From a virus (lineage: Duplodnaviria; Heunggongvirae; Uroviricota; Caudoviricetes): DNA of 9,381 bases. Made by a program: the position numbers and the translations under genes. This document shows, piece after piece, positions 1-9,381 of the stretch. The DNA is taken from IMG/VR virus record IMGVR_UViG_2675903336_000010; one strand, 5' to 3'. Numbering within the stretch: position 1 is the first letter of the stretch; every line of letters starts with the position of its first letter. The notes under the pieces were generated by a model that worked only from the letters and a program-made list of their open reading frames with translations, did no database searches and had not been told where the DNA came from.

Positions 1-83
1 AGGGACAGCTGATAGAAACAGAAGCCACTGGAGCACCTCAAAAACACCATCATACACTAAATCAGTAAGTTGGCAGCATCACC
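1..83 (-). mobile_element. IS1 left end (partial element, runs off the window): terminal inverted repeat plus the first 9 codons of insA
   Basis: Reverse complement of 61-83 is GGTGATGCTGCCAACTTACTGAT, which I recognise as the IS1 terminal inverted repeat. Reverse complement of 1-60 continues TTAGTGTATGATGGTGTTTTTGAGGTGCTCCAGTGGCTTCTGTTTCTATCAGCTGTCCCT, matching from memory the IS1 leader and insA start (GTG at 28..26, MASVSISCP...). The match ends at 83/84. Confidence 0.8.
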
Positions 84-235
84 CCGCCACAGAACAATTA
101 TTGCTTTTGCCGTTGATGACAATAAAGTTTTTATCGCAGGCGTATACCACGGTGGGCAAATCTATGAAACCGATTTTTTATCCAGTGCACCGTAAAACCC
201 CCATCCTTCAGGGCGTGGCGGATATCAAACTTTGG

Positions 236-1318
236 TCATTTTCTCTGGCTGATCTTTACCGGATAACCATCCCGAAGATCAATTAAGTGCTCCGGTTCAG
301 AAGCAAACCATGCATAAGATCCCCACGCCAATTCTGGTATTGCCTTTTTAAAAGGCAGAGCACTTCTGTCCATAAATGCCGTAAGGAATGCAAGATTTTT
401 CTCGCTGAACCCAGCGTCAATAGCCAAATGAGTGAGAGTAACTTTTCGTTCCCTGTTTATAGGCCCATCTGTCGCAACTACTTCAGTGAAAACTACAAGC
501 ATGTCCGAACCCGTTCGGTCCTCTCCCAAATCAATCAAAATAATATCTGGAAGTGCTTTTGAGGCATCAATATTCAGCCCCAATGCTTTTGCCAATACAT
601 CATCCTGAGCAACAACTTTATTCCCGGATTCAGACAACCAGAGCACAGTTGGATTCTTAAGAAAATTAGGAGCAAAAACTTCGATGACGGCCTTAGCTAT
701 TGTACTTGACGGGCCCGGAGCTAAAGTTCTCTTCTCTCCATTTGGGAAAGTGACGACTACGGCATCAGCAGCAATCACTGCCCCTGATTTCAATAAACGC
801 AACCTAGCAAGAGCGGCTTTGTTCAAATGATTTTCTTGCCAGGAACTTATTGCACTCAGCAGCGAATCTCCTTCAAGCCCGGCATCAAAGAGTGCTGCAA
901 AAGAGCGATTCAAACTGTAACGAGGACGAGAGGATGTGGTGGGTATACCTTTACGCTCAACAATTGCATTGCAAGGTATTAGGCCATTTTTTATAGTTTC
1001 ATCACGTATTGGCTCACGCGTATTTTCCGCATACCATGCATCAGCAGGCCTTATCTTTTGTTTAGAGAAAGTCATCTTTACCCAGCTTTCTCTGGACGCA
1101 TCATCAGTAAGAGCAGCCTGCGAATCTCCCATACTTACAACCTGGCTGGGCCTTATCCATCGCCCCAGCCCCTCAACCGCACCAGCATAAAACATGACAA
1201 AAATTGTTTTTGCAGCTATTTCCCGAATTAAATATCCACGATTCTCAGTCCCTTCAGGGAAAATTAATTGTAATCTTTCCCGGATAACATTCAATGGGGG
1301 AACAACAGGCAGATTCAT
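236..1318 (-). CDS. Putative type II restriction endonuclease (partner of the adjacent methyltransferase); family not assignable by eye, possibly BsuBI/PstI-like
   Basis: 360-aa ORF whose ATG overlaps the methyltransferase stop by 4 bp (ATGA at 1315-1318), implying translational coupling. C-terminal half has a PD...E-x-x-K-like arrangement (LPDIILIDL ... VVFTEVVATDGPINRERK). Region is AT-rich like the methyltransferase gene. No sequence search possible. Confidence 0.5.
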   Translation of the reverse strand: MNLPVVPPLNVIRERLQLIFPEGTENRGYLIREIAAKTIFVMFYAGAVEGLGRWIRPSQVVSMGDSQAALTDDASRESWVKMTFSKQKIRPADAWYAENTREPIRDETIKNGLIPCNAIVERKGIPTTSSRPRYSLNRSFAALFDAGLEGDSLLSAISSWQENHLNKAALARLRLLKSGAVIAADAVVVTFPNGEKRTLAPGPSSTIAKAVIEVFAPNFLKNPTVLWLSESGNKVVAQDDVLAKALGLNIDASKALPDIILIDLGEDRTGSDMLVVFTEVVATDGPINRERKVTLTHLAIDAGFSEKNLAFLTAFMDRSALPFKKAIPELAWGSYAWFASEPEHLIDLRDGYPVKISQRK

Positions 1319-3147
1319 GCAATCATCACTCCATAGAAACCAGCGATAGTTCTCTCAATAATCCGTCTGTGGACGCCAGCATCAATTAACGATTGAATCT
1401 CCATCACCTGCTCCAGAGAAGGCAACGGGATTGAATTCAATTCATAGGCCGAAACAGCAACACTTCCGCTTATACACCTGAACGCCCGATCGACAACATG
1501 CGAATTAAGTAGCATATCAATAACATCAGGGCGAACCGCAGAGAACAATCCGTTTGAATATACAATATTAATATGGTTTTCAACTACTACGCCACCAGTT
1601 TCATCTATAAATCCCTGAGGTAAAATTGCCGCTAAAATCCTTCTGTCCTGTTCCTTCGATGTTGTCCGCTGAACAAGCACACATTCAGATTTTGTCACAA
1701 GGAAACCCTGTTGTGGGGTTATATCGATATAGGGAACATGATTTTTTCTGTCTGCACTAAAACGAAAACCAGCTGAAGTTATTGATTCCGCCCAGACTAA
1801 TGGGTAGCTATTTTTTCCTTTCGTCGTACGCAACTGCGACTTAAATCGATTCCAGACTAACTGACCTGTAGAGACTGAGTATCCCAGATCAGCTAAACGC
1901 GTAGACATCTGTTTTAATACATTAAGAAAACAGGCATCATCTTTAACGCGTGGCAAAAGCCACGTTGCTCCACCTTTTTCTATATCAACATTACCTATTT
2001 TCTCAATTTTTGCTTTGTTCAACCCCTTAGGGACAAGTGAGGATACCTGGGCCCGAACTTTATGTTCTCCCGCCTTGAATGCTGTCAACATTGTTTCCTG
2101 GAGAACATCGTCAAAGACCCCATCCCTGTCAGTGACGAAATCAAGGGCATACGGAGTAGTTTTTTCGGTCAAAAGGGTTCGCAGCGCGGTGAAATACTGC
2201 CCACCAAGAAAAGAAGTTGGCGTAAGAAATGCAATAACTCCTGTTTTCTCTTTAACCATGCGAACAGCTAAGTCGGTGAACAATCCATATAGATTTGCAT
2301 GACCAAATAACGAACGAGAATATTTTTCTCTCGTTTTAATATCGAGAGTGACACGTCCGTAAGGCGGATTCCCTACCACAAGATCATAACCAGAAAATTT
2401 ATCTTGCTGAAGCGCATCAGCAACAATAATTGTATCTTCAGGCAATCTACGTTTTACCTTTACACATAGTGGCATTAGTACAGATTCGAGCAATACCAAA
2501 CTCATCCAAGCCGCAAATGGATCGATCTCTATCCCCTTTAAACGACGACTGATTCTCCTCAACATCCATTCAGGGGAAGACCCCTTGTCTTTTTTTAACA
2601 TTCGAATGGCTACTGGTGCCAAAAATGCACCGCCACCACACGCAGGATCAATAACCGATGCATGAGAAAAATCAACACCAGACTTTTCAGCCAGGTCCAA
2701 GAGACGCGCTACCAAAGGTGGGGGGGTATAGTAAGCCCCCAATTCCGAACGGTAAGCGGATGGCAGCATTACCGTATAAATTGACCCAATCAGATATCCA
2801 GCGTCCTCCGCCGGAAATTGAGCAATAAGCTCACCTGTTCGTTCAGCGAGCTCGCGTGCATCACATGGAATGTCTTCTATGTAAACAGTGTGCGGTACTG
2901 CCCTCATTTTAATGCTGCTTTTTTGCTTTTTTGCAAGGGTATCCCAATATGCAGCTACGATGCTGAAGCAGTATGAGCGGGCATGCATCAACCTTGACTG
3001 CCCGGTTTTGTAATTGCCCGCATAACCTTTGGCCATGGCTTTACAAGTTTGATATCTTTCCAGATTAGAAAACTCATTATCTGTAAAAAAATCAAAATGT
3101 TGCACATTCATAATGTAAAATCCTAATGTATCAAACATGCGGGCCAT
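1315..3147 (-). CDS. N6-adenine DNA methyltransferase, gamma class (motif order X-I-IV), with a long C-terminal putative target-recognition region
   Basis: 610-aa ORF. Motif X GAYYTPPPLVARLL (aa 137-150), motif I VIDPACGGGAFL (aa 165-176, verified at nt 2620-2649) and motif IV VVGNPPYG (aa 257-264, NPPY verified at nt 2359-2370). About 340 aa follow motif IV. Sampled 60-nt lines are about 30-45% GC versus about 57% in the phage core. Confidence 0.85.
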   Translation of the reverse strand: MARMFDTLGFYIMNVQHFDFFTDNEFSNLERYQTCKAMAKGYAGNYKTGQSRLMHARSYCFSIVAAYWDTLAKKQKSSIKMRAVPHTVYIEDIPCDARELAERTGELIAQFPAEDAGYLIGSIYTVMLPSAYRSELGAYYTPPPLVARLLDLAEKSGVDFSHASVIDPACGGGAFLAPVAIRMLKKDKGSSPEWMLRRISRRLKGIEIDPFAAWMSLVLLESVLMPLCVKVKRRLPEDTIIVADALQQDKFSGYDLVVGNPPYGRVTLDIKTREKYSRSLFGHANLYGLFTDLAVRMVKEKTGVIAFLTPTSFLGGQYFTALRTLLTEKTTPYALDFVTDRDGVFDDVLQETMLTAFKAGEHKVRAQVSSLVPKGLNKAKIEKIGNVDIEKGGATWLLPRVKDDACFLNVLKQMSTRLADLGYSVSTGQLVWNRFKSQLRTTKGKNSYPLVWAESITSAGFRFSADRKNHVPYIDITPQQGFLVTKSECVLVQRTTSKEQDRRILAAILPQGFIDETGGVVVENHINIVYSNGLFSAVRPDVIDMLLNSHVVDRAFRCISGSVAVSAYELNSIPLPSLEQVMEIQSLIDAGVHRRIIERTIAGFYGVMIA

Positions 3148-3361
3148 AACATCTCATGGTGGCGCATAGCAAACTGGCCCGAAGAATATCACGCACCAAG
3201 TCGATCTCATAACCCGTTATGACAATAAATCTTTGTAGCTGAACTCACTTGGTGATTTGTCAATCATTCCTGGCCTCCAGTTCGTCCTGAATCTCTTTAT
3301 CGAGTTCACCGTATTTGTTAGTCCTCATCACTCACGACTTGACTTCCAGAAATAACCTTGA

Positions 3362-3718
3362 TTATTCGGGGCTATATTTTGTCACCCTGCGTATCCGCGC
3401 TTTCGCATTACGCTCAATCTGGATTAGCTTTTCTATATTTTTTCGCCTTTCCCGCTCCTCCTGGCGCAAGAGCCTTACATCATCTGCCAGTCTGGTTTCT
3501 CTTTTCGCCACAGAGAGCATCCAGTCAAATGGCTCCACAACTGCACCGCAAATTTTACAGCGGACCTGACGCTCTTTTTCGTCAACCCGGACAGAAGCGT
3601 GATGGCAATATGGTCTTTCCGATGGCTCATAAAGAAAATTAACCTGATTACGAGGGTTATCCTCTTTTACCGGAAATAAAACAATATTGCTTAACTCATC
3701 TTCTGGTTTTATTTCCAT
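3362..3718 (-). CDS. Hypothetical protein, Cys/His-containing (C-x-H-H ... C-x-x-C) with a basic/acidic C-terminal tail
   Basis: ORF track extends to 3775 (GTG), but the ATG at 3718 is preceded by a strong SD (AAGGAGAGGAG). Translation MEIKPEDEL...CHHASVRVDEKERQVRCKICGAVVEPFDW...RLLRQEERERRKNIEKLIQIERNAKARIRR. Same strand and tight spacing with upstream genes. Confidence 0.55.
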   Translation of the reverse strand: MEIKPEDELSNIVLFPVKEDNPRNQVNFLYEPSERPYCHHASVRVDEKERQVRCKICGAVVEPFDWMLSVAKRETRLADDVRLLRQEERERRKNIEKLIQIERNAKARIRRVTKYSPE

Positions 3719-3775
3719 GCTCCTCTCCTTTGATGCGAATGCCAGCGGTAATTGAAGCCTGATAGCTAATTTCAC

Positions 3776-4198
3776 TCACAGTACCGCCTCCTGAAAATCA
3801 CCCTGATAGAAAGCCGGTACACGCTGCATAACTTCACTCTTCCGGCACTCGCGACAGATTATGTTCTGATGTCTGTCGTAGCGGCGTATTTCTCCGTCCG
3901 GTAATGACCAGATAAGGTCCGGATCAACCACAGATGGTTTCTTCAGCTTTGCCCTCGAGAGTTTTTTGCGGGCGTTTTGCCAGTCCTTACGAGCCTGTTC
4001 AGACGGGAATAACCCGTAGCCAGAGTTGTATACATCCCCACTGGCAACCAGCTCTCTGGCGAGAACGCTTATTAAATATCTTGTCGCCCCGGTTTTAGCT
4101 TCCAGTTGTCGTAACGTCTCGCGCCCACTCTGGCGTACGAGTTCAACAACCTGCCCCTTAATTTTTTCCCGCTCTTCCTGTGTAAATACTTTTGCCAT
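3776..4198 (-). CDS. Hypothetical protein with an HTH-like segment
   Basis: ORF track start at 4213 is TTG; in-frame ATG at 4198 (MAKVFTQEE...) has a G-rich SD-like stretch upstream. Contains TLRQLEAKTGATRYLISVLARELVASG. Lies 15 nt after the stop of the upstream gene. Confidence 0.5.
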   Translation of the reverse strand: MAKVFTQEEREKIKGQVVELVRQSGRETLRQLEAKTGATRYLISVLARELVASGDVYNSGYGLFPSEQARKDWQNARKKLSRAKLKKPSVVDPDLIWSLPDGEIRRYDRHQNIICRECRKSEVMQRVPAFYQGDFQEAVL

Positions 4199-4213
4199 AA
4201 GCGCCCCCGGCAA

Positions 4214-4939
4214 TCACTTTTCCGACACAATACGACCGGAGGAATCGACAATCTGTCGAACAATATCCCGGTGCTTGTTCAGCTCCCGCAACGCGGCGCA
4301 GACACGCTCCCACTTCTGGACATGACTTTTCGCCCGACGCAGTTCGCGGTTTGCCATATGCAGCGATGGTAAAACCAGGTCATCCGCTTGCGTTTCGGTG
4401 AACGATGGCAACGACTGCACAATGTCCGCCACAGTTTCTGTTTTAATTTCTTCCTGTGTTGCAGCTTCCTGTACCGGTAACGCAACACCTGCTGGCTGAG
4501 GAAAGACTTTACCATCCGTTTCCGCTATGGATGCGGCTTTCGGCTCTGCCGGTAAATCAGCGCCCGGTATGCAGTACCGAAATTTACCGCCCTGATTCAC
4601 GCGAATCAGACGCCCTTTGCTGATTGCCATGGCCAGCGATGAATTCGCCCGGCGGGAGGTAATCCCGAACATCAGTGCCAGCTCATCCGCCGTTTGTGGG
4701 CCATGTTGTTCAATCGCCTCAGTCAGCATTTGCGCTGTCACTTTCGGTACCGGTGACACTGGTTCACTTTCACCAGCCTGAATCAGCCACCACATCGAAC
4801 CCTTGTTATCCGCTTCACCACGGCGCTTCAGTTTCCACAGTTCGTTGACCGCATCTTCACGGCTGATTCCAAGGCGGGACGCCACCACATGTGAAGAGGC
4901 TCTTTTCAGTGCTTTCAGTGCGTCAAATACAGTTTCCAT
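4214..4939 (-). CDS. Hypothetical protein with two tandem winged-helix-like segments
   Basis: ORF track start at 4957 is TTG; in-frame ATG at 4939 (METVFDALK...) is preceded by GGAGGA with 7-nt spacing. Two similar segments ([24 protein letters not shown] and [32 protein letters not shown]). Starts about 20 nt after the DnaC-like stop. Confidence 0.55.
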
Positions 4940-4960
4940 TAAAACATCCTCCAACAAAAA

Positions 4961-5445
4961 TTACTTCACAACTCCCGGAAAGCTGACATTTGAACGCCAG
5001 CTATCCCAGTTAAACGTCACCCACCGACAACCGTTCATGGTCATGCGGTCCATAATCCTCTCACCAAGAAGCGTGCTCATTGCGGCATGATTCAGGTTTG
5101 TTAACATCCCGACACTGCACAGTGATGCTGTCCGGCGATCAATTATCTGGTGCAATACCACCTGCTCGTTTTTCGTCTCCCGCTGAATGCCTATTTCATC
5201 CAGGACCAGCAAATCAACCCCGCAAAGCTCCTGTAAAAATTTTTCACCGGATTTGCCGTTGTCGTAGCTGTCATGCAACACGCTCATGACATCAGACTCG
5301 GTGACGATAATCACGCTGCGCCCCTTCGCCATCAGCCGGTTACCCATCGCCGCTGCAAGGTGATTTTTCCCGGTGCCGGTTTTACCGCTGAACACAAAAT
5401 TCGTGCACCCGGTCATCAGTTCGTCAGCTATGGATTTGGCCTGGC
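4961..5445 (-). CDS. DnaC-like helicase loader (lambda P analog / YdaV-like AAA+ ATPase), N-terminus lost in the assembly gap
   Basis: Walker A FVFSGKTGTGKNHLAAAMG and Walker B DLLVLDEIG. The frame stays open upstream of the first in-window Met (...QAKSIADELMTGC...) into the N-run, so the gene is truncated by the gap, not by a stop. Confidence 0.85.
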
Positions 5446-5705
5446 NNNNNNNNNNNNNNNNNNNNNNNNNNNNNNNNNNNNNNNNNNNNNNNNNNNNNNN
5501 NNNNNNNNNNNNNNNNNNNNNNNNNNNNNNNNNNNNNNNNNNNNNNNNNNNNNNNNNNNNNNNNNNNNNNNNNNNNNNNNNNNNNNNNNNNNNNNNNNNN
5601 NNNNNNNNNNNNNNNNNNNNNNNNNNNNNNNNNNNNNNNNNNNNNNNNNNNNNNNNNNNNNNNNNNNNNNNNNNNNNNNNNNNNNNNNNNNNNNNNNNNN
5701 NNNNN
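5446..5705. other. Assembly gap (260 N)
   Basis: Uninterrupted run of n from 5446 to 5705; true length and content unknown. Confidence 1.
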
Positions 5706-6507
5706 ATTTCTTCGGGTTTGCCCCGGCACGCAACGGGTATTCCCGCCAGACCTGTTCGAACACATCCGGATAATCCACTCGTCCCACAGGCTGCCCGGTG
5801 TTTTCCGGGGCTACCCGATCGGCTTCCCGCTGAATGGCGGAATCGGCTTCAGGCTGCTGCAGTTGGAGTGATTGCTCCGGCCTTGCGGTCATCACCTGCT
5901 GCACAGCGCCCGAATCGGCTTTCAGCGCATACGCTGAATCGGCTTCCGGTGTCGAGCCTGCTGGCTGACCAGGATTGACGGTCTGAACATCCCCTGCCTG
6001 GTTCGTGGCGTTTTTTACGCCATGGACCATAGTGTTTTGATCTTCTTTATCTGTATCTTTATCTGTATCTGTCGTGACTCGTCGTGACATGTGCGTGACA
6101 TTTCGTGACGCGCCGTGACAATCGCCATTTTGTTCCCGCTTTCTTTCCCTCTCTCGCTGCGCCCTCTTGCGCTCTGCAGGAGATTTTGCGGTTTGCGAAA
6201 TATTGCCGTTGTCCTCTTTAAGCACCTGGCGTTTTTCCCATCCAGTGATTAAATCACCATCAAGTACCCGCCCCTGCATCGTCTGCAAAATTGAATCAAT
6301 TACCTCTTCTGTCACGTCGAGCGCACTTGCCAAATCTTCTGTCGTGACATCAATGTGACCTCGCGTGACATTTCGTGACGCGCTCACCAGGAGGTGGATA
6401 TACACTGCCATCACTGTTGCAATTGGCTGCCCTGACACCCTGGCAATTGTTCGCCACTTAGGGTCATTTGGCATGTCATGCCATAATCTGAGCCAGGCGT
6501 TAGCCAT
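5706..6507 (-). CDS. Replication initiator / replisome organiser (lambda O analog, YdaU-like), C-terminus lost in the gap
   Basis: ORF track start 6513 is GTG; ATG at 6507 (MANAWLRLWHDMPNDPKWRTIARVSG...) has a GAGGTG SD upstream. Sits between the cII-analog and the DnaC-like gene, contains iteron arrays, and has a conserved-looking C-terminal start DYPDVFEQVWREYPLRAGANPKK before the gap. Confidence 0.7.
6073..6119. repeat. Iteron array 1: five direct copies of CGTGAC at about 10-11 bp spacing
   Basis: CGTGAC at 6073, 6083, 6094, 6104 and 6114 (gtCGTGACtc gtCGTGACat gtgCGTGACa tttCGTGACg cgcCGTGACa), helically phased, inside the initiator gene. Confidence 0.65.
6311..6379. repeat. Iteron array 2: CGTGAC at 6343, 6364 and 6374, variant TGTGAC at 6354, and an inverted copy GTCACG at 6311-6316
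   Basis: tgtCGTGACatcaaTGTGACctcgCGTGACatttCGTGACg. The 21-mer GCGTGACATTTCGTGACGCGC occurs in both arrays (6092-6112 and 6362-6382). Confidence 0.65.
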
Positions 6508-6578
6508 ACTCACCTCTTCTGATACCGAATCTTTTTACTCACGAGTTGCCGGGAGCGATTCGATATGGCTATTGTCAG

Positions 6579-7375: not shown

Positions 7376-7876
7376 ATGAAAAGAAAATCATTGTCAGACA
7401 CCGACCTCAACGCCGCCAGAAGACTGAAAGAAATCTGGATGGCAAAGAAATCTCAGTTGGGATTGACTCAGGAACGTGCGGCGGAAATTATGGGGTTTTC
7501 AACACAAGGGGCGGTAAGTCACTACCTAAATGGTCAAACCCCACTAAACCTTGAGGCTGTTCTAAAGTTTGCTGGCTTACTGAAAGTTCCCCCTGAGTCA
7601 ATCAGGCCAGACATGGTAGATTTGCTGCAAATTGCAAGGATGTATTGTCGAGAACCACAGCAAGATAACATAGTCGCATTACCAGCAGACACAGAACAAA
7701 CAGAGGATGAACTACCGTTTGCCGTAGAGCCGATGGAACGAGATTTAATCCATACGTTCAGAGCTTTTCCGAAAGAAGATCAAGAACACATGCTTCAGGA
7801 GATGAAAGATAAAAAAGAATCAATGGATCGTACGGTTGCGCGGTGGTTAGCTGCACAAAAAGGCCGTCGCGCCTAA
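7376..7876 (+). CDS. Prophage repressor, RacR/PaaR-like XRE-family HTH protein with no LexA-like peptidase domain
   Basis: ORF track start 7346 is GTG; first ATG at 7376 (MKRKSLSDTDLNAARRLKEIWMAKKSQLGLTQERAAEIMGFSTQGAVSHYLNG...). Classic cI/XRE HTH (LTQERAAEIMGFSTQGAVSHYLNG). Divergent from the cro-like gene. C-terminal half lacks any G-x-S-M/Ser-Lys autocleavage signature. Confidence 0.75.
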   Translation: MKRKSLSDTDLNAARRLKEIWMAKKSQLGLTQERAAEIMGFSTQGAVSHYLNGQTPLNLEAVLKFAGLLKVPPESIRPDMVDLLQIARMYCREPQQDNIVALPADTEQTEDELPFAVEPMERDLIHTFRAFPKEDQEHMLQEMKDKKESMDRTVARWLAAQKGRRA

Positions 7877-7895
7877 ATCAGAGGAGATATGTAAA

Positions 7896-8090
7896 ATGAG
7901 TACAGTCCTTTCCCCAATGGTTTCAGAATTTGAGACAGTTGAGCAAGAAAATAGTTACAACGAATGGCTGCGGGCCAAAGTAGCAGCAAGCCTCGCGGAT
8001 CCCCGCCCGGCGATTCCGCATGATGAGGTAATGGCGGAAATGGAACAAATTATTGCCCAAATTGCTGCTGCAACTCACAGAGGTGAATAA
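7896..8090 (+). CDS. Small acidic antitoxin of a ParE-family type II toxin-antitoxin pair (PaaA2/ParD-like)
   Basis: 64-aa ORF with GAGGAG SD 9 nt upstream of the ATG. Stop overlaps the toxin start (TAATG at 8088-8092). Sits 19 nt downstream of the repressor stop. Confidence 0.65.
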   Translation: MSTVLSPMVSEFETVEQENSYNEWLRAKVAASLADPRPAIPHDEVMAEMEQIIAQIAAATHRGE

Positions 8091-8380
8091 TGTTACCCGT
8101 TTTATGGCTACCATCTGCTCGTGATGATTTGCGCCAGATCGTAGCCTACATAGCTAAAGAAAATCCCGCGGCAGCACGCAGAATGAAAATTCGAATTGAA
8201 ACATCCGTTTTGCCGCTCACAGAGCATCCTTACCTGTATCCTCCAAGCGAGCGAGTTCTTGGTCTTCGTGAAATTGTAACTCATCCTAACTACATCATCC
8301 TTTACCGAGTAACAGCATCAAGCATAGAAGTAGTAAATATTGTGCATTCTCGAAGACAGTATCCAGGCAAAAACAGTTAA
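8090..8380 (+). CDS. parE: ParE/RelE-superfamily toxin
   Basis: 96-aa ORF with the typical ParE pattern: MLPVLWLPSARDDLRQIVAYIAKENPAAARRM...GLREIVTHPNYIILYRVTASSIEVVNIVHSRRQYP. Translationally coupled to the upstream antitoxin. Confidence 0.8.
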   Translation: MLPVLWLPSARDDLRQIVAYIAKENPAAARRMKIRIETSVLPLTEHPYLYPPSERVLGLREIVTHPNYIILYRVTASSIEVVNIVHSRRQYPGKNS

Positions 8381-9189: not shown

Positions 9190-9381
9190 TCCCTGCGTCC
9201 TCTAAGCTTTTGATATAGCGGTCCTCCAAGAAGCGGTAAATTTTGTCGAAATCATCTTTTCCCTCTGGTTTATTCAGAGGATTACAGGACCCGTAAGTAG
9301 CGGCATACATTTCAACCGTTTGGTAATGACTCCAACTTATTGATAGTGTTTTATGTTCAGATAATGCCCGATGACTTTGTC

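Follow-up and report, generated by a model that had tools for sequence, protein, structure and literature searches.

An insertion sequence at the edge of a prophage fragment may have brought in the genes beside it, removed the genes that once followed, or merely marked the place where an assembly stopped. The DNA analysed here raises this question at its first letters. The window, as we call the whole stretch of 9,381 nucleotides, is a Caudoviricetes record (IMGVR_UViG_2675903336_000010) in which a restriction-modification (R-M) pair lies close to what looks like one end of IS1. We asked what this IS1 end belongs to, what it interrupts and whether it has anything to do with the presence of the R-M pair. 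The features on which the answer rests are collected in Table 1.

Table 1. Features of the window and of the ydfJ-ydfI spacer (window coordinates unless a locus is named)
Feature	Position	Strand	Basis or remark
IS1 copy A, left (IRL) end, IS1 nt 83->1	1..83	-	exact identity to IS1; runs off left window end
IRL of IS1 copy A, GGTGATGCTGCCAACTTACTGAT	83->61	-	100% match to annotated IS1 copies
insA promoter-like hexamers, where the insA promoter is expected	76->49	-	promoter scan
insA GTG start (IS1 nt 56); codons 1-9 in window	GTG at 28-26	-	annotation and translation
parE' remnant, last 36 codons and stop of a gene for a 103-aa RelE/ParE-family toxin	84..195	+	translation of 85-195 equals the ParE C-terminus of L001
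Spacer, 40 bp, between convergent parE and endonuclease genes	196..235	.	no terminator-like hairpin found
BsuBI/PstI-family type II restriction endonuclease, 360 aa	236..1318	-	transcribed towards IS1
Cognate N6-adenine methyltransferase, N6_Mtase and Eco57I domains, 610 aa	1315..3147	-	domain matches
Run of 260 N, scaffold gap	5446..5705	.	531 bp in finished genomes
Three-gene toxin-antitoxin locus	7376-8380	+	Pfam matches on identical L003 genes
HTH_3 regulator	about 7376/7439-7876	+	Pfam
PaaA2-family antitoxin	7896-8090	+	Pfam
ParE-family toxin	8090-8380	+	Pfam
One copy of the IS1-B 9-bp target duplication, caaccgttt (AAACGGTTG on the other strand)	9313..9321	.	flank comparison
IS1 copy B, right (IRR) end	9322..9381	-	exact reverse complement of last 60 nt of IS1; runs off right end
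Three independent IS1 insertions/junctions within 14 bp, same orientation	L015 1813-2580; L016 1813-2580; L003 12004-12051	.	AT-rich ydfJ-ydfI spacer

The left end of the window is an IS1 terminus

Sequence comparison revealed that window 1-83 is the exact reverse complement of the IRL end (nucleotides 1-83) of a complete IS1 of 768 bp (reference copy L003 11236-12003); on the minus strand this segment reads GGTGATGCTGCCAACTTACTGATTTAGTGTATGATGGTGTTTTTGAGGTGCTCCAGTGGCTTCTGTTTCTATCAGCTGTCCCT. It matched 9,314 E. coli records, mostly at identities of at least 99% (E = 5e-35), and among the matches listed the annotation was that of IS1, IS1A or IS1B transposase elements, some of them 100% identical. 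Judged from these alignments, the similarity to IS1 is far beyond chance. The boundary falls exactly at 83/84, where an earlier note on this DNA had placed it: from base 84 onward the sequence is similar to IS1-free relatives, and base 83 is C, the IS1 terminus, where the uninterrupted sequence has T. The endonuclease ORF ends at 236, leaving 152 bp to IS1, in good agreement with the earlier estimate of about 150 bp.

We also noticed a hybrid promoter-like site at window 70-98 (+), with a -35 element TTGGCA (70-75) inside the IRL and a -10 element AACAAT (93-98) in the parE remnant. Its spacer is 17 nt, it matches at 9 of 12 positions, and it points out of IS1, antisense to the endonuclease gene. 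The promoter scan returned two such sites against 0.9 expected by chance, so the site is a weak candidate; a putative -35 supplied by IS1 to an outward promoter that reads antisense into the endonuclease gene would be a speculative and weaker addition to the interpretation of the locus. An Rfam search of the window found no RNA family. Outside the window, Rfam matches comprised C4 antisense RNA and isrK in the prophage region to its left, and STnc560 near mgtT (L006 243-431, 20019-20232).

A complete IS1 in finished Shigella sonnei chromosomes

The window's endonuclease and its fragments carry the protein source name '[Shigella sonnei]', and nine finished chromosomes of this species (L003-L011, 4.8-5.0 Mb) are 99.9-100% identical to the whole window. 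The element at its left end, hereafter copy A, is complete in all nine (768 bp, or 767 in L009; L003 11236-12003), so the earlier proposal that IS1 extends past the window, with the rest of the element to be found upstream, was borne out. Its terminal inverted repeats are imperfect when IRL and IRR are compared. The 232-aa InsAB' product (L003 11291-11988) matches PF03811, PF12759 and PF03400, covering the InsA zinc ribbon, HTH_Tnp_IS1 and DDE_Tnp_IS1 families, and the A6C -1 frameshift motif TTAAAAAAC is readable at insA/insB'. Termini, length and transposase together place copy A within IS1, and the element is complete and apparently functional.

Could the 83 bases nevertheless have come from a pACYC184-type plasmid, by vector contamination or as a chimeric contig end? 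The earlier note was right that such vectors share the fragment. A 561-nt stretch of pACYC184 matched at 100% the circular record NZ_CP110197.1, a 4245-bp catA1/tet(C) p15A plasmid that contains IS1 nt 1-144 and is 100% identical to window 1-83. However, nine chromosomes finished independently of one another share the junction and continue with all 768 bp of IS1; the vector contains no match to the IRR sequence that closes the window; and IS1 is a native element of both E. coli and Shigella, strongly multiplied in the latter. We accordingly attach practically no credence to a vector origin. The perfect 83-bp match to a pACYC184-type sequence at this contig end is native IS1, and a vector alarm would be false. 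A literature check of the IS1 remnant in pACYC184 returned matches that concerned IS10.

A second IS1 end and the window as a contig

The right extremity of the window is also an IS1 end (copy B; Table 1). The earlier description of the locus thus holds for the IS1 end at 83/84, while it missed both this second end (9322-9381) and the parE remnant beside the first. Copy B has its full 768 bp in L003-L011 and lies in direct orientation to copy A, 9.5 kb away. Its outer (left) flank differs among strains, with three variants, which indicates later IS1-mediated rearrangements. In L003, three IS1 copies lie within 21 kb; the third, also direct (20226-20994), adjoins mgtT 8.2 kb beyond ydfI.

The 531 bp that the scaffold gap replaces hold the 3′ end of a replisome-organizer gene and the 5′ end of a DnaC-like gene; the ORFs at 4961-5416 and 5428-6513 were rejected as artefacts of the gap. 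Many S. sonnei contigs with the window's endonuclease measure 9.2-9.3 kb, and 5-10 kb is the commonest class of longest contigs. Shigella reference chromosomes carry 229-348 IS insertions, with IS1 as the largest share (PMC7373316). Short-read assemblies break at IS1 because very many copies of it are present in S. sonnei. With an IS1 end on either side and an N gap inside, the window resembles a repeat-broken contig, as the earlier suggestion of a rearrangement or assembly boundary would have it, and most probably it is the whole of a scaffolded short-read contig whose limits are collapsed IS1 repeats.

A further contig, L012 (AAWETE010000076.1), is 100% identical to the window over 88-5445 and carries another immunity region, with 78-94% identity there. 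It ends at window position 88, four bases into unique sequence from the IS1 junction, which suggests that the same junction may occur in a mosaic variant of the prophage.

A parE remnant separates IS1 from the restriction-modification pair

The sequence directly adjoining copy A is not spacer: it comprises the last 112 nt of a toxin gene. This parE' lacks the start codon and the first 67 codons, and the cognate parD is absent beside it. With neither a complete ParE ORF of ~100 aa nor an adjacent parD, parE' in the window reads as a pseudogene remnant, which we flag since an annotator could overlook it. An ORF at 101-286 (+) is out of frame with the remnant and was discarded as spurious. Beyond the short spacer, transcription of the R-M pair runs towards IS1. 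No terminator-like hairpin intervenes, and a terminator scan of window 1-500 found nothing. The pair is apparently intact, and it is apparently fixed in S. sonnei.

The restriction-modification pair is phage cargo, not IS1 cargo

The same R-M pair occurs with intact, convergent parD-parE and no IS1 in E. coli FDAARGOS_943 (L001), in E. coli VL7S7 (L002) and at locus L007. DNA identity between the window and these IS1-free relatives is 98.7-99.1% over 3.7-4.1 kb, starting from window base 84. Their toxin is annotated RelE/ParE and adjoins a ParD antitoxin, with matches to PF05016/PF03693 at L007. After parDE, the relatives continue with DUF968, rusA, Q and the lambdoid prophage genes for lysis and morphogenesis. 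The FDAARGOS_943 prophage was rejected as a model of the far end, as it lies beside potB and not at ydfJ, and was used only for gene order and approximate size.

Because the same pair stands beside parDE without IS1 in these E. coli relatives, IS1 did not deliver it, and the earlier idea of an IS1-borne cargo falls on this shared prophage slot. Gene order thus identifies the R-M pair as phage cargo that would have been in place prior to IS1, not as transposon cargo.

The strongest form of the opposite idea is a Tn9-like composite transposon, in which a direct IS1 pair with 9.2 kb between its members brought the R-M pair together with the phage early region. The architecture is indeed that of Tn9, two full direct IS1 copies bracketing the segment. 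Yet the outer flanks share no duplication, copy B having a private 9-bp one and copy A none; the segment stays in step with IS1-free prophages well past the R-M pair; and its place in the chromosome is the classical site of Qin. The pair was found on none of 72,556 plasmids and in only two of 5,426 complete E. coli genomes, neither of which has IS1 at that junction. A composite transposon is therefore an extremely unlikely source of the segment, and we retain phage cargo as the origin of the pair.

The far flank of IS1 points to a deletion at the Qin locus

What lies on the other side of copy A is chromosomal. The sequence CATATAACAAAACATATAG... leads to the start codon (ATG) of ydfI 48 bp on, and the gene order continues with ydfZ, rspR, ydfG, dcp, ydeJ and ydeI. 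This flank aligns with the ydfJ-ydfI intergenic region of K-12, just past the hairpin after ydfJ. The search for an 8-9 bp target duplication that the earlier note had proposed found none at copy A in the nine chromosomes, the 9-bp flanks being CTGTGGCGG and CATATAACA in 9/9. A duplication would have shown here, because copy B, serving as a control, displays a clean 9-bp one (AAACGGTTG on both sides) in three genomes (L006, L009 and L010), as expected of a simple insertion. As its flanks differ, copy A is the mark of a deletion rather than of a simple insertion; the lack of a duplication reflects the history of the element and does not count against its identity as IS1.

A simple insertion of IS1 into parE, with the rest of parE and parD just past the element and the prophage otherwise intact, would be compatible with the window taken alone, and IS1 does break the reading frame of parE at a precisely defined position. 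In the nine finished chromosomes identical to the window, however, the far side is the ydfJ-ydfI spacer followed by ydfI, with no duplicated flanks, and we give this reading scarcely any credence. The same two observations, absence of a duplication and chromosomal ydfI on the far side, support the earlier conjecture that IS1 truncated the prophage.

The missing part might instead have been moved. An inversion or translocation by IS1 x IS1 recombination, with the late prophage region and parD surviving elsewhere in the genome, accords with the heavy rearrangement of S. sonnei genomes at IS copies and with the three left flanks of copy B at this very locus. Against it, both flanks of copy A keep the order and orientation expected of a prophage at the Qin site (R-M ... 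parE ... [late genes, attR, ydfJ] ... ydfI). Kept order and orientation are what a plain deletion predicts and an inversion does not. For a translocation of the missing segment the argument is one of parsimony only, both flanks appearing to keep the ancestral order and orientation. We regard a rearrangement of this kind as very unlikely.

A deletion remains the preferred reading: window 1-83, where a complete 768-bp S. sonnei IS1 has its IRL end, very probably marks an IS1-associated deletion in a Qin-locus prophage. Taking the ancestral gene order from the IS1-free relatives and K-12 Qin, the lost material would comprise parD, the 5′ 200 nt of parE, nin/Q, the genes for lysis and morphogenesis, attR, and ydfJ with 40 bp of the spacer. 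Judged by K-12 Qin and the prophage of FDAARGOS_943, the deletion would amount to ~15-35 kb. Each of the nine finished genomes that we examined has the junction, which is thus fixed among them. Species-representative genomes, searched for exact copies of the parE'/IS1 junction, contained none; Shigella is probably not separately represented there. No genome was found in a precursor state, whether IS1 in parE with a duplication or, in Shigella, an intact prophage at ydfJ. The deletion accounts both for a contig that ends at IS1 and for a prophage that is only a fragment.

Proposed mechanism and a recurrent IS1 target

The proposed sequence of events starts from an ancestral lambdoid prophage integrated in ydfJ at the Qin locus, which would have carried the PstI-family R-M pair followed by parDE between its replication module and the nin/Q region. 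An IS1-mediated event would then have joined mid-parE (after nt 200 of 312) to the ydfJ-ydfI spacer, 48 bp upstream of ydfI. Two routes could lead to this product: an adjacent deletion by intramolecular transposition, IS1 having first inserted at one of the two endpoints, or homologous recombination after parE and the ydfJ-ydfI spacer had each received an IS1 in direct orientation.

E. coli G3/10 and 720632 carry independent simple IS1 insertions in the ydfJ-ydfI spacer, flanked by the duplications TTTTATTCA and ACAAAACA. Both are oriented like the S. sonnei copy and lie 7 bp to either side of its junction. The spacer is a recurrent IS1 target, a local hot spot. This fits either a first insertion there or the choice of the spacer as target of an intramolecular event. 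In further genomes, IS1 is found in or near ydfJ.

A second toxin-antitoxin locus and possible addiction

Apart from the parE remnant, the window contains a three-gene toxin-antitoxin locus (Table 1), whose arrangement is like that of paaR2-paaA2-parE2. This allows a speculative reading, which we consider unlikely: the 9.2-kb prophage remnant between direct IS1 copies might persist through addiction stabilisation amid IS-driven genome reduction. If so, loss of the remnant by IS1 x IS1 recombination would expose the cell to post-segregational killing by the R-M pair and the PaaA2-ParE module.

Comparison with known systems

Copy A is an IS1 of the IS1A/IS1B/IS1R type of E. coli and Shigella, its 83 nt in the window being identical to annotated IS1A/IS1B ends. 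Nothing of substance sets it apart except the lack of a target duplication, which is explained by its position at a deletion junction. The IS1 remnant of Tn9 in pACYC184 is partial (IS1 nt 1-144), whereas the S. sonnei IS1 is full length and chromosomal. In Tn9 itself, direct IS1 repeats surround a cargo; the S. sonnei pair has the same layout but no sign of transposing as a unit.

Another close counterpart is the Qin cryptic prophage of E. coli K-12. Both occupy the same site, with the ydfJ side by ydfI, ydfZ, rspR, ydfG and dcp, and in the same orientation; the late genes of Qin point towards ydfJ, the same order as in S. sonnei. The two differ in the addiction-module slot between the replication genes and ydfU/Q, which holds relBE-hokD in K-12 and the R-M pair with parDE in S. 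sonnei. They differ also in extent: K-12 Qin has retained ydfJ and some of the late region, with no IS1 there, while the S. sonnei remnant consists of the early region only, with an IS1 copy at either end.

Adjacent deletions mediated by IS1, and the reduction of Shigella genomes by IS elements, are established (Hawkey et al. 2020, PMC7373316). The junction described here resembles them in that the deletion starts exactly at the IS1 end, keeps one IS1, shows no duplication and took away prophage genes and a chromosomal gene (ydfJ), as a change fixed in the species; its endpoints, mid-parE and the ydfJ-ydfI spacer, are particular to the S. sonnei lineage. The locus thus adds one more case of IS1-driven prophage and gene loss in S. 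sonnei, to which the recurrent target between ydfJ and ydfI is a small addition. Both the IS1 and the IS-associated deletion are of standard kinds, and the species is known for the expansion of IS1 and for decaying prophages.
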